Shown here one piece after another: positions 3,001-58,509 of a DNA stretch of 64,000 bases. A model generated the notes under the pieces. It did not search any database. It saw only the letters and a list, made by a program, of their open reading frames with translations, and was not told where the DNA came from. How positions within the stretch are numbered: position 1 is the stretch's first letter; each line of letters opens with the position of its first letter. Made by a program: the position numbers and the translations under genes. Source of the DNA: Bacteroidales bacterium (GTDB taxonomy: Bacteria; Bacteroidota; Bacteroidia; Bacteroidales; WCHB1-69); the NCBI GenBank assembly GCA_017443175.1, contig JAFSOZ010000003.1, forward strand, positions 289,892 through 353,891, written 5' to 3'.

Positions 3001-5286
3001 AACGGGCTTGAAATCATTGTTAATAGTAAAGATCTCAGAAATAGTGTTGGAGTGGTTGCCACAAGCATCAACAGCCTCGTATGTACGAGTCACGATGGTC
3101 TGGCAAGCAGTATGGGAAGTAACCACGTCTGTAACATTGAGGGTGTTCACGTTCACACAACCATCAATGATAGTACCGACTGCCGTAGCAGGAACAGTGG
3201 CAGTGCTATCGGCTATGACAGCGAAATCAGCAAGCGTATAAGGAGCAGGAACAGCAGAAGAGTCGCAACCACTCAAGGTGCGGATCTTGTTGCCCAATGT
3301 GTCAAACGCAGCGCCGGTAGTATCCCATGCCATAACAGGGTTCTCGATATCCTGAGCCTTGATAGTATAGGTACGAGTCATTTCATTTTGACATCCTTTA
3401 ATGGTAGCTGCCGTAATATGGACAGTATAGGTGTCAACCTGGTTGCAAACCATGGAAGCGTTTACTGTGAGGTTGGTGTCATTGGAGAGAGAAACATTGT
3501 TCTTGAACCACTCATAAGTAACAGTAGGAAGAACATCGTTATAGTCAGGCTCAATGGAAGAAACCATACTGTTCATTGTAACAGAAGCACCTGGACAAAC
3601 CACGAAATCAAGTTGAGTGGAATCAACAACGAATTCAGGAGTCATAAAGAACTCGAATGTCACAGAATCATATTTAGCCGAGAAGGTATTCGTGTTGGTA
3701 TTGACCGTATAAAGATAGAAGGTAATGACCTTGTCTTCGTTCTCGGGATTCAGTTCTGTCAAATCCAGACTGATGGTGTCTCCGATCTGTTTCAGATATG
3801 CAGCGGCGTGAGTAGGATAACCCAAGTCATCTTCGGTGTACCATCTGATTTCTGTGGAGCAGAAATCCTGAGGATCCAGATGAGCACGGAGCACGACCGG
3901 AGAGTTGGCTTCCAGAGTCTCATTACAATAAGAATAATAATGAGCACCTTCCAGGATCGGAGGGAAGAGGTCGCGTACGTTCACCACGACGGTATCAACC
4001 TGACCACCACAACCGATGGTATCATCATCCATGGCGTCATAATAGAAATTGAACTGACGAGCATAGAACGGATATTGACCAGCAGTTTGGGTCAGCTGGT
4101 TCAGAGACAGAAGTTGGGACATGTCGGTAGTCCAGCTCACACCGTTCTCAGACCAACGGATTTCATGACCGATGATGCCAGGGGCATCCAAGTCAACCTC
4201 GGTCACAAGACCAAGCAAGTCAGCTGCGGTGAAATTCTCGTCACGGCAGAGGTTGGTGTCTCTGGCCACGATATCGGGATTGATACGGGTATAGAGTTGA
4301 AGAGTATCGATACGTTCCACAATCCAGTGGTCGCAAACATAGTCACCGAAGAGAACATAATACAGACTTTCTTCTGTGAAAGCATAAAGGGTAGAACCAG
4401 TGGGGGTCACTTGGCCACGGCCATACATGAATGTCTCGCCGTCGCAGATGGATTTTTCATGAGCAGTGGTCACGAGATAATGCAGAGAGTCTTGATAAAG
4501 GATCTGGCCGCAGCAGCTCTGGTGGCCGCCGATATACATTTCAGGATTCTGGGAACCGTCCATCGTGAAGTCATAGTCAGTACCACCGATACGTTCACGG
4601 ATACGAACTACGAGAGCATAATTACCAACTTGTTTCCATTTGATGACAAAATCAGTAGTGGAGTGTTCACTTGCGAGGAAAGGCAGATAGAAATAGTCGA
4701 AGTTATACGTGTACATTACATGCGTATAACCGGCAGCGTGGTGAGACTCATCAAAGTATGCAGGTGCGAGCGGATTAGCCTGGCGTGCGCCCGGGAAGTC
4801 ATTGTGATTGACATGCCAAGTACTGGGATCGCAACCACAAACACCATCGCCATTTTCTACGATACCACCCAGCCAGTTGATGTTCTGGCATACGCCGGCA
4901 GCGTTAAGCTGATCATAGCGGGTGTAGATGCCGATTTCTGCATAGTCTGACAGATCACCATTTACCAATTGGCCGTCACGATAAAGCAGCCACTCAATGG
5001 AGACTTTAGTCCCACAGTTAGCACCTGTCGGGAAATGAAGTCTGTAAATGTCAGTGCTGTCTTTACGGGCGATGTTAAGAACATTGTTCAACACAAGGTC
5101 CATGCCGGCACTGGTGTCTTGAGCAATCCCAGTACCGTCCAGGTTGGCAATATGCTGGGCCGTCACCGGCTGCATGTTTTCAACCCAGAAACAGCATGAT
5201 GGATTGCTACTTTGCGCTTGAGCTGTGAAAAAGCTCATCATCGTAAGCAGAACGCTTAGCAAGCAAATTGATAATAGTTTTTTCAT
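1..5286 (-). CDS. Giant secreted SprB-repeat / Ig-like adhesin, N-terminal 1762 codons; C-terminus lies beyond the window start
   Basis: ATG at 5286 (plus-strand cat 5284-5286) is followed by the signal peptide MKKLLSICLLSVLLTMMSFFTAQAQ. I hand-translated the minus frame codon by codon from 5286 to base 1 and found no stop (no TTA/CTA/TCA in plus-strand phase 1). The ORF therefore runs off the left edge, which explains its absence from the ORF track. Repeated modules include TRTYEAVDACGNHSN, IYAVVTDACGNSS and TYTLTVTDQAGCSS. At least 5 SprB-type repeats lie near the edge (e.g. DCSSLGTGTITITNPNPNFTYSLNG). Plus-strand ORFs 760-1137, 1174-2031, 2581-2940 and 3052-4950 are antisense shadows of this gene. 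Confidence 0.85.
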   Translation of the reverse strand, partial: MKKLLSICLLSVLLTMMSFFTAQAQSSNPSCCFWVENMQPVTAQHIANLDGTGIAQDTSAGMDLVLNNVLNIARKDSTDIYRLHFPTGANCGTKVSIEWLLYRDGQLVNGDLSDYAEIGIYTRYDQLNAAGVCQNINWLGGIVENGDGVCGCDPSTWHVNHNDFPGARQANPLAPAYFDESHHAAGYTHVMYTYNFDYFYLPFLASEHSTTDFVIKWKQVGNYALVVRIRERIGGTDYDFTMDGSQNPEMYIGGHQSCCGQILYQDSLHYLVTTAHEKSICDGETFMYGRGQVTPTGSTLYAFTEESLYYVLFGDYVCDHWIVERIDTLQLYTRINPDIVARDTNLCRDENFTAADLLGLVTEVDLDAPGIIGHEIRWSENGVSWTTDMSQLLSLNQLTQTAGQYPFYARQFNFYYDAMDDDTIGCGGQVDTVVVNVRDLFPPILEGAHYYSYCNETLEANSPVVLRAHLDPQDFCSTEIRWYTEDDLGYPTHAAAYLKQIGDTISLDLTELNPENEDKVITFYLYTVNTNTNTFSAKYDSVTFEFFMTPEFVVDSTQLDFVVCPGASVTMNSMVSSIEPDYNDVLPTVTYEWFKNNVSLSNDTNLTVNASMVCNQVDTYTVHITAATIKGCQNEMTRTYTIKAQDIENPVMAWDTTGAAFDTLGNKIRTLSGCDSSAVPAPYTLADFAVIADSTATVPATAVGTIIDGCVNVNTLNVTDVVTSHTACQTIVTRTYEAVDACGNHSNTISEIFTINNDFKPVISGRINVNPVRDTACTYDVPSYATLRNIFDNDTNIHVTYNCTESAFDTVVFYINNTNVLADGNLNIFADTNLVTIYAVVTDACGNSSAKTPVFDIHKPAAMYIAHGAITIDTLELCADVTTNMHFNDNFVMNADRPYTYQWSQISVVGQSIITPDSNNYLEAVIAPVDQMLNTSSHFIMTVTDSLGCVAADTSNAVHFYRLPTAEIISHPENTGNPIHDGDTLCPNYGDFYVQSGNSVSNLPDSVINYQSLGYTWSGASDVLNKHTYTNMFKMACENCDTLYTTYLTVTNMKNCSATTAFNIYGALRAEDTLTVTAITEITMPLVSGRNDCVISVPDFVSTNVYFNPLTVQHNCFSLSEMEITQDVTPGTFVNHDTTVVITITAPRNQNNPDAVPCLTYTHVINVKMPANTVNITDIASSNVGCEPLATTLTPTVVNAIGTCTWAWSTGATTETIDVTMTTAAHTYTLTVTDQAGCSSIMTVSPLVYRTPVRTDIEFVTTPNTYCDGAVDAMNNPIYDGTFTINVLNDTAEIAGYKWNGDNYTPYRPISYVYTGLVQNTYDFTVYTTHGCYATFTDTVKHDTTDLNAPFTATRLRDNFKCENPYEGSVQVTPNVENYVYQISSDTHFTDGEVITSDSTVITPIMFNWLYQDTYRVYVVSPKGCHFVTNDVTVLDVTDTPTTHIVTIDTADCTMDNGILYIANSNPTYTYTVDGKTVRGNNGTLAFDSLSVGDHPITIVSSGNCTFVQPFTMPSRTAVPAIPTLTIHDNDYCEYMFGGYHGQNGSVTVPANQVMTGFTYTLAGETIIGVAGTAVVFDSLADQIYAMTIKDDHNCGINFNVEVPHSILVFDTVKATYTNGTDCAHPDNKVQITNPNNEYNYFLARWMYSPEAGRYVWDIERDQDNFADHNFIIDSLPDGYYMVVQEHKIFECYLSIPWQYLHVVKPEYHITATHVDDEDCSSLGTGTITITNPNPNFTYSLNGVDSTVFTGLNGNGGVNYHV

Positions 5287-5389
5287 ACTTGTTTTTTTTT
5301 GTTGTTATTAATTATTTATTCTTTTTTTTCTTATATCATTGGCTTTTAGATTCATAGAGTACAATACACTATACTAAACTTTCAACCTG

Positions 5390-5397
5390 CAAAAATA
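5390..5397 (-). promoter_or_regulatory. Bacteroidetes -7 promoter box (TAnnTTTG) for the giant adhesin gene
   Basis: Plus-strand caaaaata is TATTTTTG on the minus strand. It sits in an AT-rich intergenic region about 100 nt upstream of ATG 5286. Confidence 0.5.
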
Positions 5398-5639
5398 CAT
5401 TTTTTTTTCATTCCTATTATTATTGCATTTTTTTTTTGATTTTTTTTCAAACCTTATTCACACCAACAAGACGGATTTTCGACTTATAAAATAATATCTG
5501 TTAAGATATAGTTTTAAAAATCAAACCTTTAAATTAGCCTTGCAATTTAAAGTTATGAACATTGGAGTAATGATAAGTATGCCGGATTCCTCCCGTCGGA
5601 GGCCGGATTTTCAAAGAAACAGAAGGGGAATGAAGGGTT

Positions 5640-7586
5640 TTAGCGGACGAATCTGAATTCTGTGCGACGGTTTGCGGCCCTGCCCTCCTCTGTGGAGTTA
5701 TCGGCGACAGGCTGCCGTTTTCCATAACCGGCATAGCTCAGACGTTCGGCGGGAATTCCACGCTCCACCAGATAGTCGTACACCGCCTTGGCTCTGCTCT
5801 GGGAGAGTCTGTCGTTATACTCGTCGCTGCCCTGGTCGTCGGTATGGCCGCCAATCTCTATCTTGACATTATTGTGAGACAGGTAGTCAACCAGTTTGTC
5901 GAGCTCCATATATGACTCGGGCTTCAGCTCGCTGCGGTTAAGGTCGAAGAAGATATTCTTCAGCACTACCACCGTGCCCACATCAGCACGATGCAGACGG
6001 ATATCCTTTATATAAGGTGAAATCTCCGTATAGGATTTCTCCACCTGGAAATTTTCAGAATAGAAAGGATAGTTGGCACAGGAGACATTGAGCATGATAT
6101 TGGTGCCAGTTTGGATACATGCCAGATACTCTCCGTTCTCGGCATCCGAAGTGGTGTGTGCCACCACCTTCTTCGTATTCAGATCCACCATTTCAAGCAC
6201 GGCCTCTTGCGGAGCACCCGTCAAAGCATCTGTGACATGACCTTTGATATAGGTAACCGGATTGGGTCTCAGGGTCTCATCCAGTTCAAAGCTGTACAAA
6301 TCAAGTCCGCCTTCACCGCCGTCCTTGTCGGAAGCCATATAAGCGACCGTTCCTTTTGCATTGATGAAGATGTTGATTTCATCCGCCGGGGTGTTGATGG
6401 GATATCCCAAGTTCTGGGGTTCGGTCCAGGAGCCGTCAGCTTGCAACACTGCATAGTACAGGTCATAGCCGCCCATCCCCACTCTTCCGTTGGAAGCGAA
6501 GTAGAGCGTGCGCCCGTCACTATGGATGAATGGCGCTGCATCATCGCCCGGCGTGTTGATGACAGGTCCGAGATTCTCCGGAGCCGTGAAGGCACCCTCA
6601 GAAGTCATAGTGGTTTTCCAGATGTCCTTGCCGCCGAAGCCGCCCGGACGGGAGGAAACAAAATAGATCGTATGGCCGTCCGAAGCCATCGAAGGCTGGC
6701 TCTCCCATGCAGGTGAATTCACGGGCGCGCCAAAGTTACGCGGCCGCGACCACTTCTGCCCTATCATCTTGGACCAGTACAGATCGCAACTGCCCATACC
6801 ATAGTCGGCATCGCACATGGTGTATAACAAATAATTGCCATCTGGGGAAATGCACTGTGCACCTTCATTGTAGCCACTCTTGATGGGAGCACCGATAGGC
6901 TCGCGCTTCTGCCACTGACCGTTACCATCCTTGACAGAGAAATAGAGATCCTCTTCGTTCAGGCAGAAAGCACAAACCGTATGTTTGTCCTTGGGTCTCT
7001 TTACCGTATATATCAAAATGGAATCATCCGCCGTGATAGAAGCAAGGTACTCATCCCATTCCGAATTGATGTTTGCTCCGAGATTTACGGGCTGGAATTT
7101 CACAGGATGCTCCATTGCCTCAATGCCAAACCGACAATTGGCGATTCCTCGCTGGGCTTCCGAAAGCACCTCCGTATATTGTAAGCCTTTCTGCATGAAA
7201 AGTTCGTAATTCCGAAGGGCATCACGGTACTGCGCACACTTGGCACCCTCATTGGCAGCAATGAAATAGAGCATCGGATCAGGATCGCCAATCAACGCAA
7301 TGGCTTTGTTATAGCACTTGACGGCCGAATCGGATTGCAAGGAGAAATTGTACACATCCCCCATTATGATATACGTATCTGGATATTGGGGATCTTTCTG
7401 TTCGGCTTGCTTCAACAAGGCCAACGCCTTTTCAAAATTGTGCTCGTTGACACATTGTTCAGCCTTTTTACAGAGAGCTGCCGCTTTGGAATTCTTCTGT
7501 GCAAATGCAACATTGCTCGTGACAATGAAGACGGTCAGCATTAATGTATATATATATACTATTTTATATAAATAACCATTCTTCAT
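5640..7586 (-). CDS. OmpA-family outer-membrane/periplasmic protein with N-terminal TPR, TolB-like PD40 beta-propeller repeats and a C-terminal OmpA peptidoglycan-binding domain
   Basis: The C-terminus reads NIFFDLNRSELKPES...GHTDDQGSDEYNDRLSQSRAKAVYDYL...RRTEFRF (OmpA_C). PD40-like repeats include SPDGNYLLYT, ASDGHTIYFVSSR and HSDGRTLYFASN. The track start at 7592 is a GTG; the first ATG is 7586 (MKNGYLYKIV...AFAQ signal). Confidence 0.85.
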   Translation of the reverse strand: MKNGYLYKIVYIYTLMLTVFIVTSNVAFAQKNSKAAALCKKAEQCVNEHNFEKALALLKQAEQKDPQYPDTYIIMGDVYNFSLQSDSAVKCYNKAIALIGDPDPMLYFIAANEGAKCAQYRDALRNYELFMQKGLQYTEVLSEAQRGIANCRFGIEAMEHPVKFQPVNLGANINSEWDEYLASITADDSILIYTVKRPKDKHTVCAFCLNEEDLYFSVKDGNGQWQKREPIGAPIKSGYNEGAQCISPDGNYLLYTMCDADYGMGSCDLYWSKMIGQKWSRPRNFGAPVNSPAWESQPSMASDGHTIYFVSSRPGGFGGKDIWKTTMTSEGAFTAPENLGPVINTPGDDAAPFIHSDGRTLYFASNGRVGMGGYDLYYAVLQADGSWTEPQNLGYPINTPADEINIFINAKGTVAYMASDKDGGEGGLDLYSFELDETLRPNPVTYIKGHVTDALTGAPQEAVLEMVDLNTKKVVAHTTSDAENGEYLACIQTGTNIMLNVSCANYPFYSENFQVEKSYTEISPYIKDIRLHRADVGTVVVLKNIFFDLNRSELKPESYMELDKLVDYLSHNNVKIEIGGHTDDQGSDEYNDRLSQSRAKAVYDYLVERGIPAERLSYAGYGKRQPVADNSTEEGRAANRRTEFRFVR

Positions 7587-8397: not shown

Positions 8398-9873
8398 CTA
8401 ATAAGATCTGGCAAACAAGACTCTCTGTTTGGAAGGTTTGCCCGTCAAAATGCACTTGCCTTCCTCCAGCGGATTATTGAACGGTATGCAACGAATCGTC
8501 GCCTTCGTCAGTTCCTTGATCTTATCTTCCGTTTCCGCTGTGCCGTCCCAATGTGCGTAGATAAAGCCAGGGTGGTTATCCAGCAAATCCACAAACTCGT
8601 CCCAAGTATCGGCTTTTCGAGTATTATCGTCTCTGAATTTCAATGCTTTGGCAAACAGATTAGCTTGAACATCCTTCAACAGCTGTTGTACATATTCAAC
8701 AAGTGTATCAAAAGGTACAACCTCCTTGGTCAATGTGTCTCGACGGGCCACCTCGGCAGCATTGTTTTCCAAATCACGAGGCCCGATGGCGATTCTCACG
8801 GGGACACCCTTCAATTCATATTCATTGAATTTCCATCCAGAACGCTTGGTGTCATCATTGTCAAACTTTACAGAGATATTAAGCTCTTTCAGTTTTGCAA
8901 TGAGCGGCTGAACCTTCTCGGCAATTGCCTGACGTTGTTCTTCTTCCCTATAGATAGGTACGATCACCACTTGAATAGGAGCAAGATTCGGCGGCAAGAC
9001 CAAACCGTTGTCATCGGAGTGTGTCATAATAAGAGCGCCAATCAATCGGGTGGAAACGCCCCAGGAAGTTGCCCATACATACTCTTGCTGGTTGCTTTGG
9101 TTCAGGAACTTCACATCAAAAGCCTTGGCAAAATTCTGACCGAGGAAATGGGAAGTACCAGCCTGCAATGCCTTGCCATCCTGCATGAGTGCCTCGATGC
9201 AATAGGTGTCAATAGCACCGGCAAAACGCTCATTCGGAGACTTAACACCCTGAATCACAGGAATTGCCATGAAGTTCTCCACAAAGTCTGCATAGACGTG
9301 CAACATTCTTTCGGTTTCTTCCACGGCCTCCTCGCGGGTGGCGTGCGCAGTGTGACCCTCCTGCCACAAGAACTCTGCCGTGCGCAGGAACAAACGCGTG
9401 CGCATCTCCCAACGAACCACATTAGCCCACTGGTTGCACAAAATCGGCAGGTCACGGTACGATTGAATCCAATTCTTATAAGTGTCCCAAATAATGGTTT
9501 CGGAAGTCGGACGGACAATGAGTTCCTCTTCCAGCTTAGCTTCAGGATCAACGACCACTCCGCCGCCATTGGGATCATTCTTCAAACGATAATGTGTCAC
9601 AACGGCACATTCCTTGGCAAAGCCCTCCACATGGCTGGCTTCACGACTGAAAAAGGACTTGGGAATAAAAATCGGGAAATAGGCATTCGAGTGTCCCGTC
9701 TCCTTGAACATCCGATCCAAGGTGGACTGCATCTTCTCCCAAATCGCATAGCCGTATGGCTTTATCACCATGCATCCTCTAACCGCCGAATTCTCAGCAA
9801 GATCTGCTTTCTTTACAATATCATTATACCATTGTGAATAATTCTCATCTCGTGTAGAAAAACTTTTAGCCAT
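8398..9873 (-). CDS. proS: Proline--tRNA ligase (archaeal/eukaryote-like class II type)
   Basis: 491 aa. N-terminus is [46 protein letters not shown]. Class II motifs and a C-terminal ProRS domain are present. Confidence 0.92.
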
Positions 9874-9976: not shown

Positions 9977-11329
9977 ATGAAAAAACAATTTTTATTTGTT
10001 CTAATCCTCGCAGCAATTTGTATAACATCTTGTCAAACAGGTTCTTTCGCCTACTACGACGACATCTACTCCTCATCGGGCGATGACCAGTACAAGATCA
10101 TGCGTGCGGAAAGCCAGAACAAGCCCGCAAACAATCCGAAGACCGTCACCTATTATGAGGAGATTCCGGCTCCGGATTCTATCTCCTATCAATACAATGA
10201 GGATGGAAGCATCGGCACCACCTATTATTATAATGAAGACGATTACTACGACTACTATTACACCTCCCGCCTGCGCCGCTTCCACACGGATGTATATAGC
10301 GGCTGGGGATATTACGATCCTTATTTCACCAATCTGTATTGGTATGACTACTGTCCATCAAACTGGGGCTTAAGCATTTACATGGGTTACAACTGGTGGT
10401 GGCCAAACTACTACTATCGTCCGTATTACTATAATTACGGCTGGTATGACTATGGTTTCCGCTATGGTTGGGGCTGGGATTATTACAATCCTTACTGGCA
10501 CAACCACGGATGGGGATGGTACCATCACCACAACTGGGCTATCGACTATTATCACAACAACTATGACCACAACCACTCGTTCTATTATGGTCATCGCAAC
10601 AGCATAGGACCCGTTTTGGGAAATCAAGGAAACGACGACAGAGGTATGCGTCCCAATTTCGATTACAGCAACAGTAACAACGACAACAATAATCACTACT
10701 CTGTTGTTTCCTCTTCACCAGCCTCATTCAGCGATCGTTACGATGGTTTAGCCGCATCTTACAGTCCTTCGGGGGGCGGCGGTTCCAGCTCTGGTTCCCA
10801 TAATCCTTCTTCAAGACCCACCACACAACCTACTCCTACTCCTACGCCTCGTCCTGCCAACACACCAGCCTCCGCAAGCACAAACCGGACAAATGTAAAC
10901 ACGAACAACAGTCGGACTTACGACAATAATCCGACCTCTAATTCAACCCCCAACACCCGTCCCAACTACAATTCTTCCAGAACTCCAACAAACACATCTG
11001 CCTCCACTTCAAGACCTTCGTCCAACAATAGCCGGAGCACTACTACCTGGACAACTCCGAGTTCCTCCACCCACGACCGTCAGCCGAGCAACTCACACAA
11101 CAGCCGGCCAGGTTCTTCCTACAATCAAAGCAACACTTCCAGACCAAGTTCAACTTACAATAACTCAAACTCTTCCAGATCTTCTTACAATAATTCTTCT
11201 TCCAGAAGCAATTACAGCTCCCCGTCCAGCAGCAGCAGCTCTTCTCGCAGCTCATACAGCGGATCCTCACGAAGCAGCAGTTCGTCATACAGCAGCAGCT
11301 CTTCACGCAGCAGCGGGGGAAGACGATAA
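9977..11329 (+). CDS. Lipoprotein of extreme low complexity: Tyr/Trp/His/Asn/Gly-rich core followed by a Ser/Thr/Asn/Pro/Arg-rich tail
   Basis: ATG 9977 gives MKKQFLFVLILAAICITSC, a lipobox with Cys. The core contains YYYRPYYYNYGWYDYGFRYGWGWDYYNPYWHNHGWGWYHHHNW. The tail ends ...SSSSSSSRSSYSGSSRSSSSSYSSSSSRSSGGRR. I recognise no family. Confidence 0.7.
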   Translation: MKKQFLFVLILAAICITSCQTGSFAYYDDIYSSSGDDQYKIMRAESQNKPANNPKTVTYYEEIPAPDSISYQYNEDGSIGTTYYYNEDDYYDYYYTSRLRRFHTDVYSGWGYYDPYFTNLYWYDYCPSNWGLSIYMGYNWWWPNYYYRPYYYNYGWYDYGFRYGWGWDYYNPYWHNHGWGWYHHHNWAIDYYHNNYDHNHSFYYGHRNSIGPVLGNQGNDDRGMRPNFDYSNSNNDNNNHYSVVSSSPASFSDRYDGLAASYSPSGGGGSSSGSHNPSSRPTTQPTPTPTPRPANTPASASTNRTNVNTNNSRTYDNNPTSNSTPNTRPNYNSSRTPTNTSASTSRPSSNNSRSTTTWTTPSSSTHDRQPSNSHNSRPGSSYNQSNTSRPSSTYNNSNSSRSSYNNSSSRSNYSSPSSSSSSSRSSYSGSSRSSSSSYSSSSSRSSGGRR

Positions 11330-11363: not shown

Positions 11364-12869
11364 ATGAAAAGGATTTTAACCAGCATAGTAATGTTGTGCC
11401 TAATCAGTACAACTTTCGCACAAGGGGACTATGAGGCATTCCGTTTCTCCCAGATCGAGTACCAGGGAACGGCACGTTACATGGGTGCTGGCGGAGCATT
11501 CAGCGCCACAGGCGGAGAGTTTTCCGCCATTAGCGTAAATCCCGCAGCCATTGGACTTTACAAGCGCCACGAAGCTTCCATTACCCCATTATCTTTGGCC
11601 TTTACCAATAACAATTCCACCTATTACGGGGAACCCAGCTTTACTCAAAAAGCCAAATACACAGTTCCTCAATGCGGACTGGTCATCACCAACCACATCG
11701 ATAACTCCAATTGGAACTACTGGCATTTCGGTTTCGGGTACAACCGCATCATGGACTATAACAACACGTTCCGAGCCAATGCCCCTGTTAACAAATCTAT
11801 GGCTGACGTCATACTTCCACACGCCAACGGTATCGCTTACAATGCGCTTACTGGTGATGCTTCTCTGGCATGGAGCACTTGGCTGATAGACACAATACCT
11901 GGGACTAACAATCAGTATTATAGCCCTTTCACAGACGCAAAACTCAACAATGAAGCACTTGTAAAAACCTCCGGAGCCATGGATGAAATCAGCTTCTCCT
12001 TCGGCGGCAATTATTCTGACAAACTCTTCATCGGTGCCACTCTCGGCGTGCCCGTGCTCAGCTACAAAGAGGTCATTTCCTACGCCGAATACGCCACTGA
12101 TTCCGCCACCTTGGCCAAAGGAATCGCCTCTTTCCAAACCAACAGCGCTCAACAGAACTCCAGTGCCGGTATCAATTTGAAATTAGGCGTTATATATCAG
12201 CCTGTCAGTTTCCTGCGTTTAGGCGCATCTTTCCAAACTCCTTCCTATTTCTGGAAAGTCAAAGATTCGTACAGCCGGGATATGATCTCCTACTATACCA
12301 ACGGCAAGAATTCCGACACGTGGAGTTATGACAACAACTATCGCTTCTCGCTCACCACTCCGCTCAAATTCAATGTAAGTGCCGCATTCCTCATCAACAA
12401 AAGAGCATTCATATCCGCTGAATACGATTTCATCGACTACTCCATGGCCAAACTGTACGCCGACGACTACAATTTCAACACAGAAAATCAGGCTATTGAC
12501 AACAAATACGGCATCTGCAACACATTCAAACTCGGTGCCGAAGTAAACGTCACCTCCAAGTTCCTGTTGCGTGCCGGTTACAACTACAAAACCTCTCCTT
12601 ATAAAAACTTCAAATCCAGTTTCAACGGAAGCGCACATTATGGTTCTGTCGGCTTCGGAATCCGCACCAAATACGTCTTCTTTGATTTGGCCTACGTGCT
12701 GAAATACTCCAAAGACAGCTACTGGTTGTATCCCGATACGGTCCAATATCTTACCGCCAGCGAATACCAGAACCTTATTCAAAACAGTCTTCCCGACCGT
12801 TACACCTCTGCCATCTCCACCAGAGGCATATCCCACAGAATTGTCGCTACAATCGGTTGCAAATTCTAA
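11364..12869 (+). CDS. FadL/TodX/OMPP1-like outer-membrane beta-barrel channel
   Basis: Signal peptide ...TFAQ, then a FadL-type N-terminal hatch pattern: YEAFRFSQIEYQGTARYMGAGGAFSATGGEFSAISVNPAAIGLY (G-rich, NPA). The rest has alternating aromatic beta-strand character and ends in a terminal ...GCKF. Confidence 0.6.
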   Translation: MKRILTSIVMLCLISTTFAQGDYEAFRFSQIEYQGTARYMGAGGAFSATGGEFSAISVNPAAIGLYKRHEASITPLSLAFTNNNSTYYGEPSFTQKAKYTVPQCGLVITNHIDNSNWNYWHFGFGYNRIMDYNNTFRANAPVNKSMADVILPHANGIAYNALTGDASLAWSTWLIDTIPGTNNQYYSPFTDAKLNNEALVKTSGAMDEISFSFGGNYSDKLFIGATLGVPVLSYKEVISYAEYATDSATLAKGIASFQTNSAQQNSSAGINLKLGVIYQPVSFLRLGASFQTPSYFWKVKDSYSRDMISYYTNGKNSDTWSYDNNYRFSLTTPLKFNVSAAFLINKRAFISAEYDFIDYSMAKLYADDYNFNTENQAIDNKYGICNTFKLGAEVNVTSKFLLRAGYNYKTSPYKNFKSSFNGSAHYGSVGFGIRTKYVFFDLAYVLKYSKDSYWLYPDTVQYLTASEYQNLIQNSLPDRYTSAISTRGISHRIVATIGCKF

Positions 12870-12875
12870 TCAACT

Positions 12876-13661
12876 ATGAACAAATGCGTTGTCATCACCT
12901 TTCTGATAACCATATCCATTGGTTTAGGACAAGCGCAATCCTTGTTCGATGCAACGTATGACCACTTCACAACCGACAATCAGAACAATATCTACACCTG
13001 GAGGGGGGCCAGCCTGACCAAATATTCAACCCAAAACACACCCGCTGGAGAAGTCCTGTGGGTGTTTGACAAACCCGTATATGGCAACATCTCATCGGTA
13101 GATGCCAATGTCATCAAAACCCTTGTCTTCTATCAGGAATCCGGCAAAATAGTGTTGTTAGACAACACCTTATCCCCTATCGGGAACGAACTTGATCTTT
13201 TCGAGCACGATTTGACCTCTGTAACACTGGCCGCACTCTTCGGCAACAATCGAATCGTCTTGTTTGACGAGACCAACCAGGATCTATACATCACAGACCT
13301 GAACCTGAACGTCGTCTCCAAAACACATTGCTCTTTCCCAGAAGAGATTGCCCCGTTCAGCCTGCAATCAGAACCCGACCATTGCATCATGCTGATAGAC
13401 TCCATGAAAGGCATATTCTTTTTCGATAGATTCGGCACATTTGAACAACGACTGCCTATAACGGGTATCCTTTCCGCCCAACTGTCTGGAGAGAACATCA
13501 TCTACCTGAAAGACAACACTCTATATCAATACAATCGTAAAAAACTAGAACAATCACAGTCCTATCCATCTTTTATTTCCAACAGCAAAGAACTCCGCTT
13601 AACAGGATCCTGGCTGTTCATTCTGGACAAGGACGGTATTCTACACACCATACAAGATTAA
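12876..13661 (+). CDS. Secreted hypothetical protein (repeat/beta-rich, possibly propeller-like)
   Basis: Signal peptide MNKCVVITFLITISIGLGQAQ. It starts 6 bp after the barrel gene. No recognisable motif. Confidence 0.6.
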   Translation: MNKCVVITFLITISIGLGQAQSLFDATYDHFTTDNQNNIYTWRGASLTKYSTQNTPAGEVLWVFDKPVYGNISSVDANVIKTLVFYQESGKIVLLDNTLSPIGNELDLFEHDLTSVTLAALFGNNRIVLFDETNQDLYITDLNLNVVSKTHCSFPEEIAPFSLQSEPDHCIMLIDSMKGIFFFDRFGTFEQRLPITGILSAQLSGENIIYLKDNTLYQYNRKKLEQSQSYPSFISNSKELRLTGSWLFILDKDGILHTIQD

Positions 13662-13682: not shown

Positions 13683-14942
13683 ATGAGAAGATACCTCTTT
13701 ACAATCGCCCTGCTATTGAGCATAATTCCGGCATTCAGCACCCATATCCTGATTCCGATGGATTTGGAGCAAAAAAATCATCTGAAAGCATACGGAATAG
13801 CCTATTACGCAGTAGCCCATCAGATTGACATGAGCTGGCTCCTGAACTACCGCGGAGGCAGCTTCATGTGCGCGTACAATGATGCTGTGGAAAACGAATG
13901 CCGTGTCCGTGGCGTTTCATTTCAGGTCATCGCGGACATACAGGCCCAACAGATTCTCAGCGAGATTGCGGCTGTAGAGAACAATATGAACGAAATCCGG
14001 CTCACCAAAGAGCCCAAGATCGCCGTTTACTCGCCAAAGAACAAGCTTCCTTGGGATGATGCCGTTACTTTGGTGCTCACATACGCGGAAATCCCCTATA
14101 CCGTGCTTTATGACGAAGAGGTAATCAACGGTGAATTGCCCAAATATGATTGGCTGCACTTGCATCACGAAGACTTCACCGGACAATATGGTAAATTCTG
14201 GGCCAGCTATCGTAATGCCAAATGGTATATTGATGATGTGAAAGAGAATGAAGATCGGGCCGCACGATTAGGATTTGCAAAAGTTTCACAAATGAAATTG
14301 GCTGTAGCCAAGGGTATCCGTGACTTTGTGGCTGGCGGCGGCTATCTATTCGCCATGTGCTCCGGTCCCGACAGCTACGACATCGCACTGGCCGCCGAAG
14401 GTGTGGACATTTGCGATGTAATGTTCGACGGCGACCCTATGGATCCACAGGCCCAAAGCAAACTCAACTACGACAACTGCTTCGCCTTCACCAACTTCCA
14501 TATCGTCACCAACCCATACGAGTATGAGGTTTCGGACATTGACGTGAAGCCTACCCTGCACATGACGAACAAGAGCAACGATTTTTTCACCCTGTTTGAG
14601 TTTTCCGCCAAATGGGACCCTGTTCCCACCATGCTTTGCCAGAACCATCTAACCGTCATTCCTGGGTTCATGGGCCAAACCACGGCCTTCCGCAAAGCGG
14701 TCATAAAGCCCACCGTCACTATCCTGGGAGAGTCTGCTCAATTTGACGAGGCGCGATACATTCACGGGGAGTATGGCAAAGGCACCTGGACCTTCTATTC
14801 CGGCCACGACCCTGAAGACTACCAGCATTTGGTAAACGACCCACCTACCAATCTGGACCTCTTCCCGAATTCGGCGGGATACCGCCTGATTCTGAACAAT
14901 GTGCTATTCCCTGCAGCCAAGAAACAGCAGCAAAAGACATAA
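13683..14942 (+). CDS. Secreted hypothetical protein with class-I glutamine-amidotransferase-like / DUF4159-like features
   Basis: Signal peptide ...IIPAFS. The pattern KIAVYSP...WDDAVTLVL...KYDWLHLHHEDF...VAGGGYLFAMCSGPD resembles the GATase1-like (ThuA/DUF4159) fold. This assignment is tentative. Confidence 0.55.
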   Translation: MRRYLFTIALLLSIIPAFSTHILIPMDLEQKNHLKAYGIAYYAVAHQIDMSWLLNYRGGSFMCAYNDAVENECRVRGVSFQVIADIQAQQILSEIAAVENNMNEIRLTKEPKIAVYSPKNKLPWDDAVTLVLTYAEIPYTVLYDEEVINGELPKYDWLHLHHEDFTGQYGKFWASYRNAKWYIDDVKENEDRAARLGFAKVSQMKLAVAKGIRDFVAGGGYLFAMCSGPDSYDIALAAEGVDICDVMFDGDPMDPQAQSKLNYDNCFAFTNFHIVTNPYEYEVSDIDVKPTLHMTNKSNDFFTLFEFSAKWDPVPTMLCQNHLTVIPGFMGQTTAFRKAVIKPTVTILGESAQFDEARYIHGEYGKGTWTFYSGHDPEDYQHLVNDPPTNLDLFPNSAGYRLILNNVLFPAAKKQQQKT

Positions 14943-14944
14943 AA

Positions 14945-14972
14945 AGACGGCGGTGCTATCGCACCGCCGTCT
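14945..14972. terminator. Bidirectional rho-independent terminator between convergent 13683-14942 and udk
   Basis: Perfect 12-bp stem agacggcggtgc / gcaccgccgtct with loop tatc, flanked by an A-run and a T-run. Confidence 0.8.
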
Positions 14973-14979
14973 TTCCTTA

Positions 14980-15831: not shown

Positions 15832-16959
15832 TTATGAGACGAAGACCACTTCATACCAGAGGTACCCACTCACGACAACCTCCTTGTAATATACGTTGTC
15901 CACTTTGAAGTACACATTGCCTTCAAGGACAATCTCTTCGTAGTTGCTGGGCAGTTCTGCCACACGGGCTCCGATAGGAGGGGCGACCACTTCGTAGTCA
16001 TTTTTTCTCGGCACATAGAAGGTTCCATCATCGTAGTAGTAAGTCACATTTTTGTGGATTACGATTACCGGCTTCCAAGTGTTGAAGATGCTGTAGGCAA
16101 TCACGGCACCAATAGGCGGGCGGCAGATTACATAGTAGCCATTGATATAGCGGCAGAAGAGGCTATTGTAGAAGTAGTATGGCATACCATGATAGTAAAC
16201 CGGACGGATGTGGCGCGGAACCGTCATGTGATGACCGAAGTTGTGGTGATTCGGGTGCACATAGGGTGCCGGCTTGGGACCATGAGCAGCTCCAGCGTGG
16301 CTTCCGTGATGTTGCGGAGCTGGCTGCGGACGAGCCTGTCCATTGCTTGTATAACCTCTTTTAGTGTTATCGCCGGCTGTTGTAGGAGCAGGACCTCTGT
16401 CATTGGCCGAAGATGCCGTTGCGGGAGTGGTAGAAGTTGCACGGGCAGGTGTACTCGCTCTGTTAGCGGTGGAAGATGATGGCGTTGCCGAGGCCGGAGT
16501 CTTGCTGTTCACCGTAGTGGTTCTGCTCGGAGTAGCCGCACTGGTCTGTCTTGCAGTTGACGATGAAGTGGCAGCCGGACGTGCCGTACTGGAAGATGCT
16601 GACGTGTTAGTTCTGTTGGCCGCACTATTGTTCACCGTAGAAGTTCTGCTTGACGTAGCTGAGCTGGCAGGTCTTGTGGTTGTTGATGTCGCAGGACGGG
16701 AACTCGGAGTTGTCTGACGCACACTTGTGGCAGGGCGAGCCGTAGAGCTGGATGACTGAGCACGTTGATAGCTGGAATTGGCTTTATTGAGTTGAGTGTC
16801 ACCTTTACGCATTTGGCGAGCTGACTGTGAGCTGACTGTGGTAGTTTGAGTTCTACTACTGCTGGGGGCAGTTTGCCGTGCAGGCGCCTGGGCCATAGCA
16901 TCTGTGCTGATCAAACTTGCAACACAGAGCATTAACGACAGGATTACATTCTTTTTCAT
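15832..16959 (-). CDS. Secreted protein with a long Ser/Thr/Ala/Arg/Pro-rich low-complexity region and a His/Tyr-rich C-terminal globular domain
   Basis: ATG 16959 gives MKKNVILSLMLCVASLISTDAMAQ. Degenerate repeats SSSTARPA(A)TS follow. The C-terminus reads ...HHNFGHHMTVPRHIRPVYYHGMPYYFYNSLF...PPIGARVAELPSNYEEIVLEGNVYFKVDNVYYK. Confidence 0.65.
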   Translation of the reverse strand: MKKNVILSLMLCVASLISTDAMAQAPARQTAPSSSRTQTTTVSSQSARQMRKGDTQLNKANSSYQRAQSSSSTARPATSVRQTTPSSRPATSTTTRPASSATSSRTSTVNNSAANRTNTSASSSTARPAATSSSTARQTSAATPSRTTTVNSKTPASATPSSSTANRASTPARATSTTPATASSANDRGPAPTTAGDNTKRGYTSNGQARPQPAPQHHGSHAGAAHGPKPAPYVHPNHHNFGHHMTVPRHIRPVYYHGMPYYFYNSLFCRYINGYYVICRPPIGAVIAYSIFNTWKPVIVIHKNVTYYYDDGTFYVPRKNDYEVVAPPIGARVAELPSNYEEIVLEGNVYFKVDNVYYKEVVVSGYLWYEVVFVS

Positions 16960-17028
16960 CTCTTTGTGTTTTTGATTGTGAATAAAAACACTCATAAGAC
17001 GAAAGACTACACTGAACGTTTAACCACC

Positions 17029-19116
17029 TTAATGCAGAACAACAATTTTTTTCTTGTAGGCAACAGTGCCGTCTTGGACAATTAACGTATAGAACCCATC
17101 AGGCAATGTCCTGACATTCAAATCAACAGCTCCCAAAACATTCTTTTCCGCACTTACCACACGTCCAGTGACATCATATAACATCACCACGGCTTCATCC
17201 AAGTGAGCTGGAACTCGAACATGTATGCTGGAATATGCAGGATTGGGGTAAATTGTGATTTCGTTCTCATCAAATTCCTCCAAGCCATCCGGAGAATAAT
17301 CTGAAGTCCAAGACAGCTCAAAACCATCTCCGCACAAATAATTGTCAGTCACAAATTCAACGAATACATAATTGCTGAAGAAAAGCAAATCTCTCGGACT
17401 GTCATTTTCAGAAAAAAGTGCAATCTGAGGTTTCTCTGGGTCAGACCAATCATAGAATGCTAACCGGTCACCTGCAGCCAAATCCAATTCGGAAAAAGCA
17501 AAATTGATCATTGAAGCATGGGGCAGATAGAATCGCCAGCTGCAATTAGCGTTATATTTGTACGAAGTTGGTCCGCTTCCGTCGGTCAGTGTACCATGAT
17601 ACTGTTGAATCAGGTCATCATGACAGAAGTTTTCATGTCTGGCCATTCTGAAATCCAGACGCCATCCCTGTGCTGTCACAGAATCATCGCTTCTGAATGT
17701 GATATACAGACTGTCGGAATTAAAGTAATAGGTGGTTCCCTGCTCTACCGTTCCGGAGAGCGTCAACAAAAGATTGCCCTGATCAGGATGTCCATCCCAG
17801 AAGCTCAAAGAGTCATGATTTTCCTGGGTTTCAAACGATTTGATTTTTATCATAAATCGATATGCTGCACCTTCAGTGAGCACAAACATGCAATCCGAAT
17901 TGTTCTGATAATCGGATGGGCCGCTGCCATCCTCAATCGTTCCATCCGAACAATGGATTTCACGATTAGCGCACATGTACGGGTAGTTCTCATCCCCGGG
18001 ATAGATATTTCTGATAATCCGCTGGGAATGCTGAAAACCATTTATCACATTGGAATCGCTATCGCTTGCAGTCAAAACATAGTAACCATTGGAACTGCCG
18101 CCCCACCCGAAATTGAAATGATAGTAATCGTCATTTTCATAGCCATCGCACACAAAAGCGTGGCCGCCATCATCGCTATGTCCAGCATAATACAAAGGTC
18201 TTTTGGCATTCAAATCCTCTTTTATGAAATTCTTCCACTGGGCCAACGTATAATCGTAACGGCGCAGGAATTGACAATTAGAGGAATAGCCGAAATAAGA
18301 AGCAAGTGCGTCAGGCACGCTTTCAGAATAGGCGCCTGATCCATCGGCACCATACATCATATCGACAGCAGTGGCACAATGGAATATCAATTTGGCCACT
18401 TCATTGTTAAAATGGCTCAGCTGATCCGTCATCGCATCATAACAATAGGTCTGTTGAGCAAAATTCACATAATAATCGCCATAATCCGTATGGTTGGTAT
18501 GGGAGCCCCAACCATGTGACGGATATCGATAATAATACATGATCATAGCCATTGCCACGGCGACGCAGCCATTGGGTGTACGCTGGTCATAGCCAGAGGG
18601 TGCATTCGCATCATGCGGGGAATATGCATTATAATATTTGGTCTGATTCCAAAGAGCCGTCAACAAGGGAGCAACACTTTGCGAAGTTTGGTCTTTAATT
18701 CCAGAAGCAGTTCTCAGAGACTCCCAGGCTTGGACCACCTTTAACGATGGTGTAGTCCCATGTTCCCGTGCGTATTGGATTTGTTTTGCATAGGAATCCA
18801 GCCACAACAGGGCTGCGGGAGCGGCCTCCTCCATGTAAAACTGTTGGTCCAAGGAATATGCCAGCACCGGAAAAACAGCATCATCGGCTGATAACACGAT
18901 AAATCCCTTGGAAAAATTCGCCACCAGCAGCAGGGTATCGGATCCGTCAGTTACAAAATGACAATCCTTAAGTTCCAGCGCACAAGCACTTTTCTGTTTG
19001 AAAGCGTTCACAGCAGCAGAAACAAGTTGTTTTCTGCCAACAGGTTTGGCAAACAAGGAAACGGATAAACAAAACAGCAAGAGCAGCCCTATAGATTTCT
19101 TTGAATTTGTCAGCAT
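17029..19116 (-). CDS. Peptidase C10 (streptopain family) with I69-type propeptide, two CUB domains and a T9SS type-A C-terminal sorting domain
   Basis: Catalytic Cys context NGCVAVAMAMIMYYYRYP. Catalytic His context DGGHAFVCDGYENDDYYHFNFGWGG. CUB-like modules are CSDGTIEDGSGPSDYQNNSDC... and GTLTDGSGPTSYKYNANCSW.... The tail is ITIYPNPAYSSIHVRV...LPDGFYTLIV. I chose ATG 19116 because a -7 box overlaps the upstream ATG at 19143. Confidence 0.85.
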   Translation of the reverse strand: MLTNSKKSIGLLLLFCLSVSLFAKPVGRKQLVSAAVNAFKQKSACALELKDCHFVTDGSDTLLLVANFSKGFIVLSADDAVFPVLAYSLDQQFYMEEAAPAALLWLDSYAKQIQYAREHGTTPSLKVVQAWESLRTASGIKDQTSQSVAPLLTALWNQTKYYNAYSPHDANAPSGYDQRTPNGCVAVAMAMIMYYYRYPSHGWGSHTNHTDYGDYYVNFAQQTYCYDAMTDQLSHFNNEVAKLIFHCATAVDMMYGADGSGAYSESVPDALASYFGYSSNCQFLRRYDYTLAQWKNFIKEDLNAKRPLYYAGHSDDGGHAFVCDGYENDDYYHFNFGWGGSSNGYYVLTASDSDSNVINGFQHSQRIIRNIYPGDENYPYMCANREIHCSDGTIEDGSGPSDYQNNSDCMFVLTEGAAYRFMIKIKSFETQENHDSLSFWDGHPDQGNLLLTLSGTVEQGTTYYFNSDSLYITFRSDDSVTAQGWRLDFRMARHENFCHDDLIQQYHGTLTDGSGPTSYKYNANCSWRFYLPHASMINFAFSELDLAAGDRLAFYDWSDPEKPQIALFSENDSPRDLLFFSNYVFVEFVTDNYLCGDGFELSWTSDYSPDGLEEFDENEITIYPNPAYSSIHVRVPAHLDEAVVMLYDVTGRVVSAEKNVLGAVDLNVRTLPDGFYTLIVQDGTVAYKKKIVVLH

Positions 19117-19140
19117 TCGTTCAGATTTTTTAAAAGGCCG

Positions 19141-19148
19141 CAAATATA
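19141..19148 (-). promoter_or_regulatory. -7 promoter box TATATTTG (minus) for the C10 peptidase operon
   Basis: Plus-strand caaatata, immediately after the upstream terminator and about 25 nt upstream of ATG 19116. Confidence 0.5.
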
Positions 19149-46070: not shown

Positions 46071-46078
46071 TAATTTTG
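46071..46078 (+). promoter_or_regulatory. -7 promoter box TAATTTTG
   Basis: 25 nt upstream of ATG 46103. This argues for the MKRFLFF start. Confidence 0.5.
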
Positions 46079-46102
46079 CAGACGACAATAATCCCTTGCA
46101 TT

Positions 46103-57700: not shown

Positions 57701-58328
57701 TCCTCCTTGCGGCGACGAGGATCATTTCTTTGTCACCGATGTGGACGGCAATGAGTATCACACCGTGAGAATGGGCTGGAACTGCTGGATGCGTGAGAAT
57801 CTGAAGACGCTGAACTATGCAGACAATACGCCGGTAGCCAAGGCTATGGGCTATGTAAGCAGCGAGTTCCCGAATGCTGACACCACAGCAAAAACCTTCG
57901 GTCGTCTCTACACCTGGTACTCCAGCATGGGCATAGAGGAAGGTTCCAACACCATGCCGACCGTCAACGAATTCGGCCACGTGCAAGGTGTCTGCCCTGA
58001 AGGTTGGTTCGTGCCCGCTCCTGAGCAGTTCAACACCATGTCAGAAATTGACATGGACAATCTCCGTGCTCCCGAATATTGGCTGGATGGCGGTGGCAAC
58101 AACAGCACCAAATTCTCCATCCTGCCGGGCGGCGCATACAACAGCGACAAAGACCGTTTCGAGAACATCCTCGGTAACGCCTACTTCTGGAGCACAGACC
58201 TCACAGGTAGTGCACAACCCAGAGCATACATGGCCGACTGCAACTGCTACATGTGGCAGATTTTGGATAGTTCCCCGAAACACGGATTCAGCGTCCGTTG
58301 CGTGAAGGAGAAAGTGAAAAACGAGTAA
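51786..58328 (+). CDS. 2180-aa secreted multidomain surface protein: N-terminal glycine-rich (PF12810-like) domain, Listeria-Bacteroides repeat, many Ig-like repeats, two MAM/CBM-like modules, C-terminal FISUMP (Fibrobacter succinogenes major paralogous) domain
   Basis: Signal peptide [24 protein letters not shown]. Gly-rich domain: [29 protein letters not shown]...[11 protein letters not shown]...[16 protein letters not shown]. Listeria-Bacteroides repeat: [20 protein letters not shown]...VTLYAHW. FISUMP: [24 protein letters not shown]...GRLYTWYS...[13 protein letters not shown]...NAYFWST...GFSVRCVKE. No T9SS CTD at the end. Confidence 0.9.
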
Positions 58329-58402: not shown

Positions 58403-58410
58403 TATCTTTG
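58403..58410 (+). promoter_or_regulatory. -7 promoter box TATCTTTG for rho
   Basis: 100 nt upstream of ATG 58510. It lies inside the longer track ORF, so the 58408 start is rejected. Confidence 0.5.
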
Positions 58411-58509
58411 CGCGTCTTTTGCAGGAGGAACAACAACCTGTCCATATCCTCTACGGGTGGTCCTCCATATTCAGCAAGGAAAATCCTATTCTACAAATTC
58501 TTAAAAACA

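Follow-up and report, generated by a model that had tools for sequence, protein, structure and literature searches.

Pairs of an outer-membrane beta-barrel and a lipoprotein are typical of the Bacteroidota outer membrane, and it is a recent finding that FadL-like barrels with lipoprotein partners take part in its core machines. Here we consider a lipoprotein gene from a Bacteroidales genome, encoded in a 64,000-nucleotide stretch of contig JAFSOZ010000003.1 (hereafter the window), whose product is exceptionally rich in tyrosine and tryptophan and whose downstream neighbour encodes a barrel of the FadL fold. The described system that it most resembles is the Bacteroidota BAM complex, in which the FadL-like protein BamG engages the lipoprotein BamH at the latter's lipidated N-terminal region, and of which a paralogous pair, BamG2/BamH2, forms a putative operon in B. 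thetaiotaomicron (PMC12578637, PMC12611786). The likeness is twofold. First, a lipoprotein gene is paired with the gene for a FadL-fold, 14-stranded barrel in what is probably a Bacteroidota operon. Second, a conserved motif of the lipoprotein lies directly past its lipid anchor. There are also differences. BamH has an acidic export signal and folded domains, whereas the lipoprotein of the window has neither an export signal nor a predicted fold; by sequence, the lipoprotein is unrelated to BamH and to every PDB chain; and the barrel resembles the transport proteins FadL, TodX and CymD equally well.

A second arrangement of this kind is known from enterobacteria, in the RcsF-OmpA/C/F complexes, where a disordered, positively charged linker of the lipoprotein RcsF is threaded through the barrel. 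Both lipoproteins belong to the outer membrane, carry a disordered basic segment and are functionally tied, in our case putatively, to a beta-barrel. They are not homologous, and the linker of RcsF is N-terminal and spans only tens of residues, whereas the basic segment here is C-terminal and 190-400 residues long. Threading of this arm through the neighbouring barrel would be pure speculation.

Judged from its sequence and from those of its relatives, the lipoprotein is genuine and founds a large, so far unnamed family that is specific to Bacteroidota. From its gene neighbourhood, and with BamG and BamH as a precedent, it may be a lipid-anchored partner of the FadL-type barrel, in which a specific aromatic module would serve for docking or binding and be joined to a disordered, polycationic arm, a reading to which we assign a probability of about 0.4. 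We rate as new the unnamed lipoprotein itself, built on an unprecedented aromatic module; in kind, the locus resembles the known modules of a lipoprotein and a FadL barrel.

A family of tyrosine- and tryptophan-rich lipoproteins

How unusual is this protein? The gene is an intact open reading frame (ORF) on the + strand, with its ATG at 9977 and its stop codon at 11327-11329, as given by the ORF list and the translation. An earlier note on this DNA had placed the lipoprotein at 10223-11326; the aromatic block does lie in that interval, but position 10223 is intragenic and the frame begins upstream of it. The count given there was reproduced exactly, because translation of 10223-10603 (residues 83-209) yields precisely 127 amino acids, with 36 Tyr and 13 Trp (38.6%) beside 13 Asn, 11 Gly and 10 His, and the peptide that had been quoted is present. 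The composition had been described as far outside the normal range, and in comparison with the other ORFs of the window the protein is indeed an extreme outlier: among all ORFs of at least 150 amino acids, the runner-up stretch of 127 residues contains 23 Tyr+Trp, and relative to a background Tyr+Trp content of 6.4% (15 long window ORFs, both near and farther away) a count of 49 in 127 has a binomial P of approximately 1e-25. Across 81 orthologues, the maximum Tyr+Trp count per 127 amino acids is 35-54 (median 47), and this conserved aromatic sequence is among the most aromatic found in our data. The protein had also been called a lipoprotein, for which we required an N-terminal signal peptide ending in a lipobox, [LVI][ASTG][GAS]C. 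Its N-terminus, MKKQFLFVLILAAICITSC, contains such a lipobox with Cys19, presenting MKKQFLFVLILAAICITS-C19 as the substrate of signal peptidase II, and a lipobox of the form [LVIMFA][AST][AS]C is found in 78 of the 81 orthologues. We place the lipoprotein at the outer membrane; with its gene usually found just ahead of one for a FadL-type channel, it is a candidate new component of the cell envelope.

A single-sequence search retrieved 73 homologues, and a genome scan identified a relative in at least 334 species-representative GTDB genomes. With a profile of the conserved part (alignment A4), 1,102 clusters at 50% identity were reached at E ≤ 1e-3, and 632 at E ≤ 1e-10. All members belong to the Bacteroidota, all are named 'hypothetical protein', and they derive from metagenome-assembled genomes (MAGs); the groups named are Bacteroidales, Lentimicrobiaceae, Bacteroidia, Chitinophagales and Vicingaceae, and the habitats include rumen, horse gut, termite gut, lake water and sediment. 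The closest relative, from a buffalo reticulum MAG (L001), is 90% identical. Searches for a described relative gave negative results: no Pfam family matched at E ≤ 0.1, the NCBIfam scan matched the signal peptide only, and below its cutoff (15 bits, where 50 are required), a phmmer search of the PDB chains, all of them included, gave no match at E ≤ 1, no profile of the YXWGXW, DUF6515 or other aromatic-repeat or unknown-function families matched, and we found no description of the family in the literature. It is this combination of wide occurrence (at least 334 species, about 1,100 clusters) with no domain, structure, name or publication found that makes the family worth attention.

One observation concerns retrieval itself. 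The word-indexed protein search topped out at 44% identity, though the genome scan found copies at 90%, 83% and 72%, and though the database in which the best match of the lipoprotein is 44% does contain a 100% match to the neighbouring barrel protein. The low-complexity tail probably saturated the list of candidates, so that the closest relatives were missed, and proteins with tails of this type may be under-retrieved systematically.

Which part of the protein is preserved by selection? We compared the window copy with six relatives (L001, L002, L003, L042, L009 and L005, in this order). The aromatic block is 100, 99, 94, 91, 88 and 80% identical, with a nonsynonymous divergence (dN) of 0.000-0.003 at a synonymous divergence (dS) of 0.27-1.03 and hence a dN/dS of about 0. 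The tail is 88, 74, 56, 59, 55 and 42% identical in the same relatives, with a dN/dS of 0.2-0.3 and many indel columns. The aromatic block is therefore the most constrained part of the lipoprotein, under very strong purifying selection and about as conserved as the neighbouring prolyl-tRNA synthetase. Since dN is close to 0 over this range of dS, the constraint acts on positions, beyond composition alone. The earlier note had taken the aromatic stretch as an effect of composition; instead, its conservation is position-specific, defines a large unnamed family and, on the evidence of these alignments, argues for a defined structure or interface over sticky composition. Every close relative in which the downstream genes are kept also has an unbroken reading frame, so that the refuting condition named in the earlier note, an ORF lost or disrupted beside conserved downstream genes, did not arise. 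In the distant member L081 (1.96-Mb contig, 5001-5937), the lipoprotein gene was called as two consecutive ORFs of 153 and 161 amino acids and is either a frameshifted pseudogene or the product of an assembly error.

The protein can be divided into an acidic head and a basic tail (Table 1). Net charge is approximately -14 in the head (residues 20-262), with -6 and a pI of 4.1 in residues 20-83, and +16 in the tail. The anchor-proximal motif YYDD[IV]Y recurs in 69 of the 81 orthologues, and in alignments A1 and A2 its residues D28 and Y31 show little or no variation. Motif A, of about 56 residues, holds most of the invariant and near-invariant columns of alignments A1, A2 and A4 and is retained even at about 30% identity; its consensus is DDYYDYxYxxRxRRFH-x8-YYDPxYTNxYWYDYxPxxWGxSIYxGYNWWxP. 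The filler segment that follows (residues 144-189) varies in length and sequence while keeping a Y/W/G/H/P/N composition, and in some homologues it carries poly-His or GY runs. Motif B has the consensus YYHNxxDxNxSxYYGHR, and motif C is a conserved SFxx(R/K)Y element in which F251 is near-invariant.

The histidines of this head bear on the suggestion that the protein is a metal-binding lipoprotein, buffering or acquiring zinc, nickel or copper through the His-rich stretch in the aromatic block. Of the 14 His in the window copy, ten lie in the block of 127 residues, with clusters such as HNH, HHH and HNNYDHNH, and the homologues P0040 and P0062 have runs of at least seven His. Across the 81 orthologues, however, the His count ranges from 4 to 25; the residues lie mostly in the variable filler, where Gly/Tyr runs replace them in other members; the invariant columns are Tyr, Trp, Asp, Arg, Phe, Gly, Pro and Asn, with H103, H193 and H206 as the only conserved His; and no metal-transport genes occur in the conserved neighbourhood. 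Metal binding is thus not what the family conserves, and we regard this reading, also raised in the earlier note, as the least probable of the readings weighed here.

For structure prediction, an AlphaFold2 (AF2) model was built from an alignment of 61 sequences, with a mean predicted local distance difference test score (pLDDT) of 47. Apart from the signal peptide (residues 3-17), the only helices are at 87-103 and 251-261, the latter with a mean pLDDT of 67 over residues 251-260. The score is below 50 at residues 105-114 and 130-248 and in most of the tail, with block means of 47-51 for residues 101-130. The model was too poor for a fold search or comparison, as matches would be meaningless. 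Since AF2 fails on a segment that evolution has held almost invariant, structure prediction has in the aromatic block a concrete test case. A loose parallel is found in extracellular loop 3 of Bacteroidota BamA, which is Tyr/Gly/Asn-rich, structurally unresolved and conserved in composition throughout the phylum (PMC12578637). Both are Tyr/Gly/Asn-rich segments without resolved structure in a Bacteroidota outer-membrane protein; the BamA loop differs in being a 38-residue segment with 13 Tyr within a barrel protein and no lipoprotein module, lacking Trp-rich motifs and any demonstrated relation to the lipoprotein.

The tail differs from the head in almost every respect. Residues 242-450 (209 amino acids, from about 10700) comprise 76 Ser, 26 Asn, 25 Thr, 20 Pro and 19 Arg, with four Asp, no Glu and no Lys, so that the region, previously described as acid-free, is nearly but not entirely so. 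The tail has a pI of 11.8 and one Arg per 7-15 residues. In the tails of 69 orthologues, 100 residues contain on average 8.0 Arg but 1.7 Lys, and 29 Ser but 2.2 Asp+Glu; R/(R+K) reaches 0.82 (median 0.88), as against 0.47 in the other long ORFs of the window; 63 of 81 orthologues end in RR. The degenerate repeats NSSR, SRPSS and SSYN that had been pointed out each occur twice, and the 22-nt DNA repeat CAGCAGCAGCTCTTC[T/A]CGCAGC is present in exactly two copies, at 11230 and 11290, where none would be expected. The prediction that repeats would make the length variable was borne out: in a near-identical strain contig (L083, 97.4% nucleotide identity) the CCTACT array departs from that of the window by a single Pro-Thr unit, and the proteins of close relatives are 431-473 amino acids long, within a family range of about 334-712 in which the shortest are cut by contig ends. 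On sequence comparison, then, the tail is fast-evolving in sequence, constrained in composition and Arg-specific.

Coupling to a FadL-fold barrel gene and to proS

The genomic context of the lipoprotein, whose conservation the earlier note had missed, links it to two neighbouring genes. The gene for prolyl-tRNA synthetase, proS, is adjacent and divergent in 70 of 80 loci and also in the distant loci L081 and L082. In 54 of the 67 informative loci (at least 1.6 kb of flank), the next gene downstream is a FadL-like gene of the same orientation, and the median gap between the two is 40 nt. Even very distant members, on contigs of 1.96 Mb and 0.9 Mb, keep the order proS/lipoprotein/FadL-like gene; in L081, the lipoprotein and barrel genes are separated by two other called genes, and the barrel is about 2 kb downstream. 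In the window, the only strong terminator is found at 14943-14974, and the terminator scan detected nothing terminator-like on the + strand before 14943. Because this terminator follows the gene for the 419-amino-acid protein, the four + strand genes that begin with the lipoprotein are probably co-transcribed in the source organism.

The barrel protein is a member of the FadL/TodX family. It matches Pfam Toluene_X (PF03349; E 2e-9, 36.9 bits against a cutoff of 29.7); its AF2 model has a mean pLDDT of 85 and the strands of a 14-stranded barrel; and the NPA hatch motif (N59, P60, A61) is invariant. Foldseek matched the model to FadL, TodX, CymD and BamG with E-values of 1e-13 to 1e-15 and a TM-score of about 0.6, and it superposes on BtBamG, PgBamG and FjBamG (E 6e-15 to 2e-12, TM about 0.6). 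A profile of 22 barrel sequences reaches just FadL (3dwo) and TbuX (3bry), both weakly, and no BamG chain even at E ≤ 10. We considered whether the barrel might be BamG, which would make the lipoprotein an analogue of BamH by homology, and rejected this identity, since sequence profiles miss BamG and the Foldseek E-values are equal for BamG and FadL.

How might the lipoprotein act together with this barrel? It has three functional parts. First, the lipid anchor is followed by the conserved YYDD(I/V)Y motif and the acidic linker. Second, motif A, the variable Tyr/Trp/Gly/His filler, motif B and the short helix C make up a sequence-specific aromatic module. Third, a polycationic, disordered arm with Arg at about every tenth residue, about 30% Ser and almost no Lys, Asp or Glu ends in the C-terminal -RR. 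We propose that the lipoprotein would be a lipid-anchored accessory subunit of the barrel encoded just downstream. The anchor-proximal motif and the aromatic module may dock on the barrel, or may bind its hydrophobic or aromatic cargo or a glycan. The Arg/Ser arm, in turn, might tether or capture an anionic partner electrostatically, for instance peptidoglycan, lipopolysaccharide (LPS), an anionic lipid or anionic amphiphiles.

Several observations weigh against this proposal. First, 13 of the 67 informative loci, mostly one long-tailed clade (proteins of 600-712 amino acids) and termite-gut lineages, have no adjacent FadL-like gene, and the lipoprotein can therefore exist without a neighbouring barrel gene. 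Second, AF2 gives no fold for residues 105-248 and so lends no structural support to a docking domain. Third, the barrel has no BamG orthology detectable by sequence, and the BamG/BamH precedent is therefore an analogy only. Fourth, the known barrel-capping lipoproteins of Bacteroidota are surface-exposed and have an acidic export signal, whereas this family has none. Finally, the proposal does not explain the conserved adjacency to proS. It is because of the 13 lineages lacking barrel adjacency and the failure to obtain a fold that we hold the barrel partnership at modest confidence. The genetic coupling to a FadL-fold channel and to proS is phylum-wide, and characterisation of the family could reveal a new accessory subunit for the uptake of hydrophobic substrates, a missing envelope tether or a novel self-assembling envelope protein.

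Table 1. Features of the lipoprotein gene and its neighbours (window coordinates).
Feature	Position	Strand	Basis
Complete coding sequence of the Tyr/Trp-rich lipoprotein, 450 amino acids plus stop	9977..11329	+	ORF list and translation, homologues, purifying selection
Signal peptide with lipobox ITSC; codon of lipidated Cys19 at 10031-10033	9977..10033	+	Sequence; lipoboxes of orthologues
YYDDIY motif, residues 26-31, seven residues past the lipid anchor	10052..10069	+	Motif count in orthologues, alignments
Acidic, Tyr-containing variable linker, residues 32-87	10070..10237	+	Charge; low interspecies identity
Universal aromatic motif A, residues 88-143, DDYYDYYYTSRLRRFH...GYYDPYFTNLYWYDYCPSNWGLSIYMGYNWWWP	10238..10405	+	Alignments A1, A2, A4
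Variable-length, Tyr/Trp/Gly/His-rich low-complexity segment, residues 144-189	10406..10543	+	Alignments
Motif B, residues 190-207, DYYHNNYDHNHSFYYGHR	10544..10597	+	Y192, N194, D197, N199, G205, R207 invariant or nearly so
Motif C, residues 250-261, SFSDRYDGLAAS, predicted short helix	10724..10759	+	Alignments, AF2
Polycationic disordered tail, residues 262-450, Ser/Thr/Asn/Pro/Arg-rich, no Lys, ending in GGRR	10760..11326	+	Composition, pLDDT, charge
6-nt CCTACT (Pro-Thr) tandem repeat, strain-polymorphic	10829..10849	+	TRF; one-unit indel relative to L083
Degenerate 18-nt array holding both exact 22-nt repeats (11230-11251, 11290-11311)	11229..11314	+	TRF, repeat count
proS (prolyl-tRNA synthetase), divergent; synteny anchor	8398..9873	-	Adjacency in loci
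FadL-fold, 14-stranded outer-membrane barrel, 501 amino acids, 34 nt downstream; putative partner	11364..12869	+	Pfam, AF2, Foldseek, synteny
Secreted protein, 261 amino acids, clade-restricted third gene, 6 nt past the barrel gene	12876..13661	+	Synteny; weak NHL similarity
Secreted protein, 419 amino acids, without family; last gene before the terminator	13683..14942	+	Synteny; terminator scan

Topology and the roles of head and tail

On which side of the outer membrane would the lipoprotein lie? Surface lipoproteins of this phylum are recognised by at least two acidic residues among the six that follow the lipidated Cys (PMC12578637). This export signal is absent in 78 orthologues, 60 of which have no acidic residue at +1 to +6 and 18 of which have one. 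With the signal absent the default topology is periplasm-facing, and the lipoprotein, as far as its N-terminus tells, should therefore face the periplasm by default. No Pfam match to a C-terminal sorting domain of type IX secretion (Por_Secre_tail, CHU_C) was found in it. Elsewhere in the window, two proteins of the type IX cargo class are encoded, one with Peptidase_C10, CUB and Por_Secre_tail domains (17029-19143, - strand) and one with PKD and CHU_C domains (46076-48925, + strand); the organism therefore has a type IX secretion system.

A periplasmic face would also be expected of an envelope tether or spacer that acts independently of the barrel, anchored in the inner leaflet of the outer membrane in a role like that of Braun's lipoprotein (Lpp). 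In such an arrangement the aromatic module would bind glycan strands by sugar-aromatic stacking, and the polycationic arm of 190-400 residues would attach non-covalently to anionic peptidoglycan or to the inner membrane. Lpp, a coiled coil of 58 residues whose terminal Lys is covalently linked to peptidoglycan, shares with the lipoprotein of the window an N-terminal lipid anchor, a conserved basic C-terminus, the lack of an export signal and hence, for the latter by expectation, a periplasm-facing position. The charge of +16, the disorder and the conserved C-terminal basic dipeptide of the tail are consistent with a tether, as are the 13 lineages that keep the gene beside proS without a barrel gene, the housekeeping-like character of the proS synteny and the wide variation in tail length, which is expected of a spacer. 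Against it stand three points. The lipoprotein has no known peptidoglycan-binding domain (OmpA, LysM and SPOR were all without a Pfam match). It is a protein of 450-700 residues, aromatic and disordered, that ends in Arg-Arg, and by established chemistry a terminal Arg cannot be cross-linked in the manner of the terminal Lys of Lpp. Finally, the barrel gene is adjacent in 81% of informative loci throughout the phylum. We therefore judge such a tether unlikely, though it has more in its favour than the other alternatives to the barrel partnership.

The same topology bears on a role outside the cell, as a surface adhesin, a binder of polyphenols or tannins, or a heavily glycosylated spacer, the last two of which had been suggested in the earlier note. 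Many members come from rumen, horse-gut and termite-gut MAGs, environments rich in plant phenolics, and tails rich in Ser, Thr and Pro are often glycosylated in other systems. These roles are opposed by the lack of both an export signal and a type IX C-terminal domain. The O-glycosylation sequon of Bacteroidota is D-[ST]-[AILVMT], and a single one occurs in the lipoprotein (DSI, residue 67), outside the tail; members of the family have 0-2 of them, with a median of 1. This count speaks against a glycosylated spacer, and the presence of the family in MAGs from lake water, sediment and other environments speaks against polyphenol binding. A surface role of this type is in our opinion very improbable.

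We also considered that the protein might be a self-assembling matrix or condensate, in which the Tyr/Trp stickers of the acidic head would pair with the regularly spaced Arg of the tail, head to tail, through cation-pi and charge contacts to form a membrane-tethered gel or layer; an amyloid-like state would be the alternative form. In eukaryotes, a Tyr-Arg sticker grammar is known from FUS-type prion-like and RGG low-complexity domains. The lipoprotein resembles these in having a region high in Tyr, spaced Arg rather than Lys in a Ser/Gly-rich sequence, SYS and GGY motifs and no predicted stable fold; it differs in being bacterial, extracytoplasmic and lipid-anchored, and in having an aromatic region that is conserved by position, unlike typical prion-like domains. 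The density of 49 aromatic residues per 127 in the head, for which AF2 gives no fold, the preference for Arg over Lys (R/(R+K) 0.82-0.88 versus 0.47, with 19 Arg and no Lys in the window copy), the SYS and GGY-type motifs in the tails of homologues and the opposite charges of head and tail all agree with self-assembly. A further point on this side is a second envelope protein (15832-16995), encoded 500 bp beyond the cluster, which likewise pairs a cationic Ser/Thr/Arg region with a Tyr-rich domain. However, a dN/dS near 0 and the column-wise conservation of motifs A and B favour a defined structure or interface over interchangeable stickers, and the Arg preference also fits the binding of phosphate or carboxylate groups. 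We thus consider self-assembly doubtful, rather more so than a tether. The same low credence attaches to its boldest form, a new envelope material in which the ultra-conserved Tyr/Trp head of one molecule and the Arg tail of another, held by cation-pi and charge contacts, would make a membrane-tethered gel or condensate around a FadL-type channel or under the outer membrane. If true, prokaryotes would here be employing, outside the cytoplasm, the Tyr-Arg 'sticker' grammar of eukaryotic FUS-like proteins.

The second envelope protein deserves a description of its own. It is a secreted protein of 387 amino acids on the - strand, in which a nearly acid-free Ser/Thr/Ala/Arg/Pro region of about 210 residues is followed by a Tyr-rich DUF6515 domain (PF20125, 2.7e-22). 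Its design, a cationic, disordered Ser/Arg region joined to an aromatic domain, is that of the lipoprotein in reverse order, and the two are non-homologous; kinship was examined by profile-profile comparison and rejected (hhalign probability 0.3%). Like DUF6515 proteins and those of the YXWGXW/WXXGXW repeat family of Bacteroidota (PF12779), the lipoprotein is a Tyr/Trp/Gly-rich secreted Bacteroidota protein, from which group it is set apart by the absence of any Pfam match at E ≤ 0.1.

Other genes of the cluster and the window

Two further genes of the cluster follow that of the barrel. The gene for the 261-amino-acid protein is present in 39 of 80 loci, starting mostly 6-7 nt after the barrel stop codon; its product shows weak similarity to the NHL beta-propeller only (E 0.0035), with no consistent Pfam family, and it may be a third subunit in its clade. 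The gene for the 419-amino-acid protein is adjacent in 19 of 80 loci, all of the closest clade. This protein, which has a signal peptide, is 85-98% identical across relatives and so about as conserved as prolyl-tRNA synthetase, and it has no Pfam, NCBIfam or PDB match. Rfam gave no match near threshold in or around the lipoprotein gene, by which an RNA element there was ruled out, and a sigma-70 promoter scan returned counts at the level of shuffled sequence, Bacteroidota promoters being outside the coverage of such a scan.

Farther downstream, the + strand encodes a protein of 2,180 amino acids (51786-58328) that has a glycine-rich domain at its N-terminus, a Fibrobacter succinogenes major domain at its C-terminus and, besides, a Listeria-Bacteroides repeat. 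It is followed on the same strand by the gene for a Rho termination factor of 625 amino acids (58408-60285), whose RNA-binding domain was matched at residues 261-334; as about 260 residues precede this domain, the protein has a large N-terminal extension.

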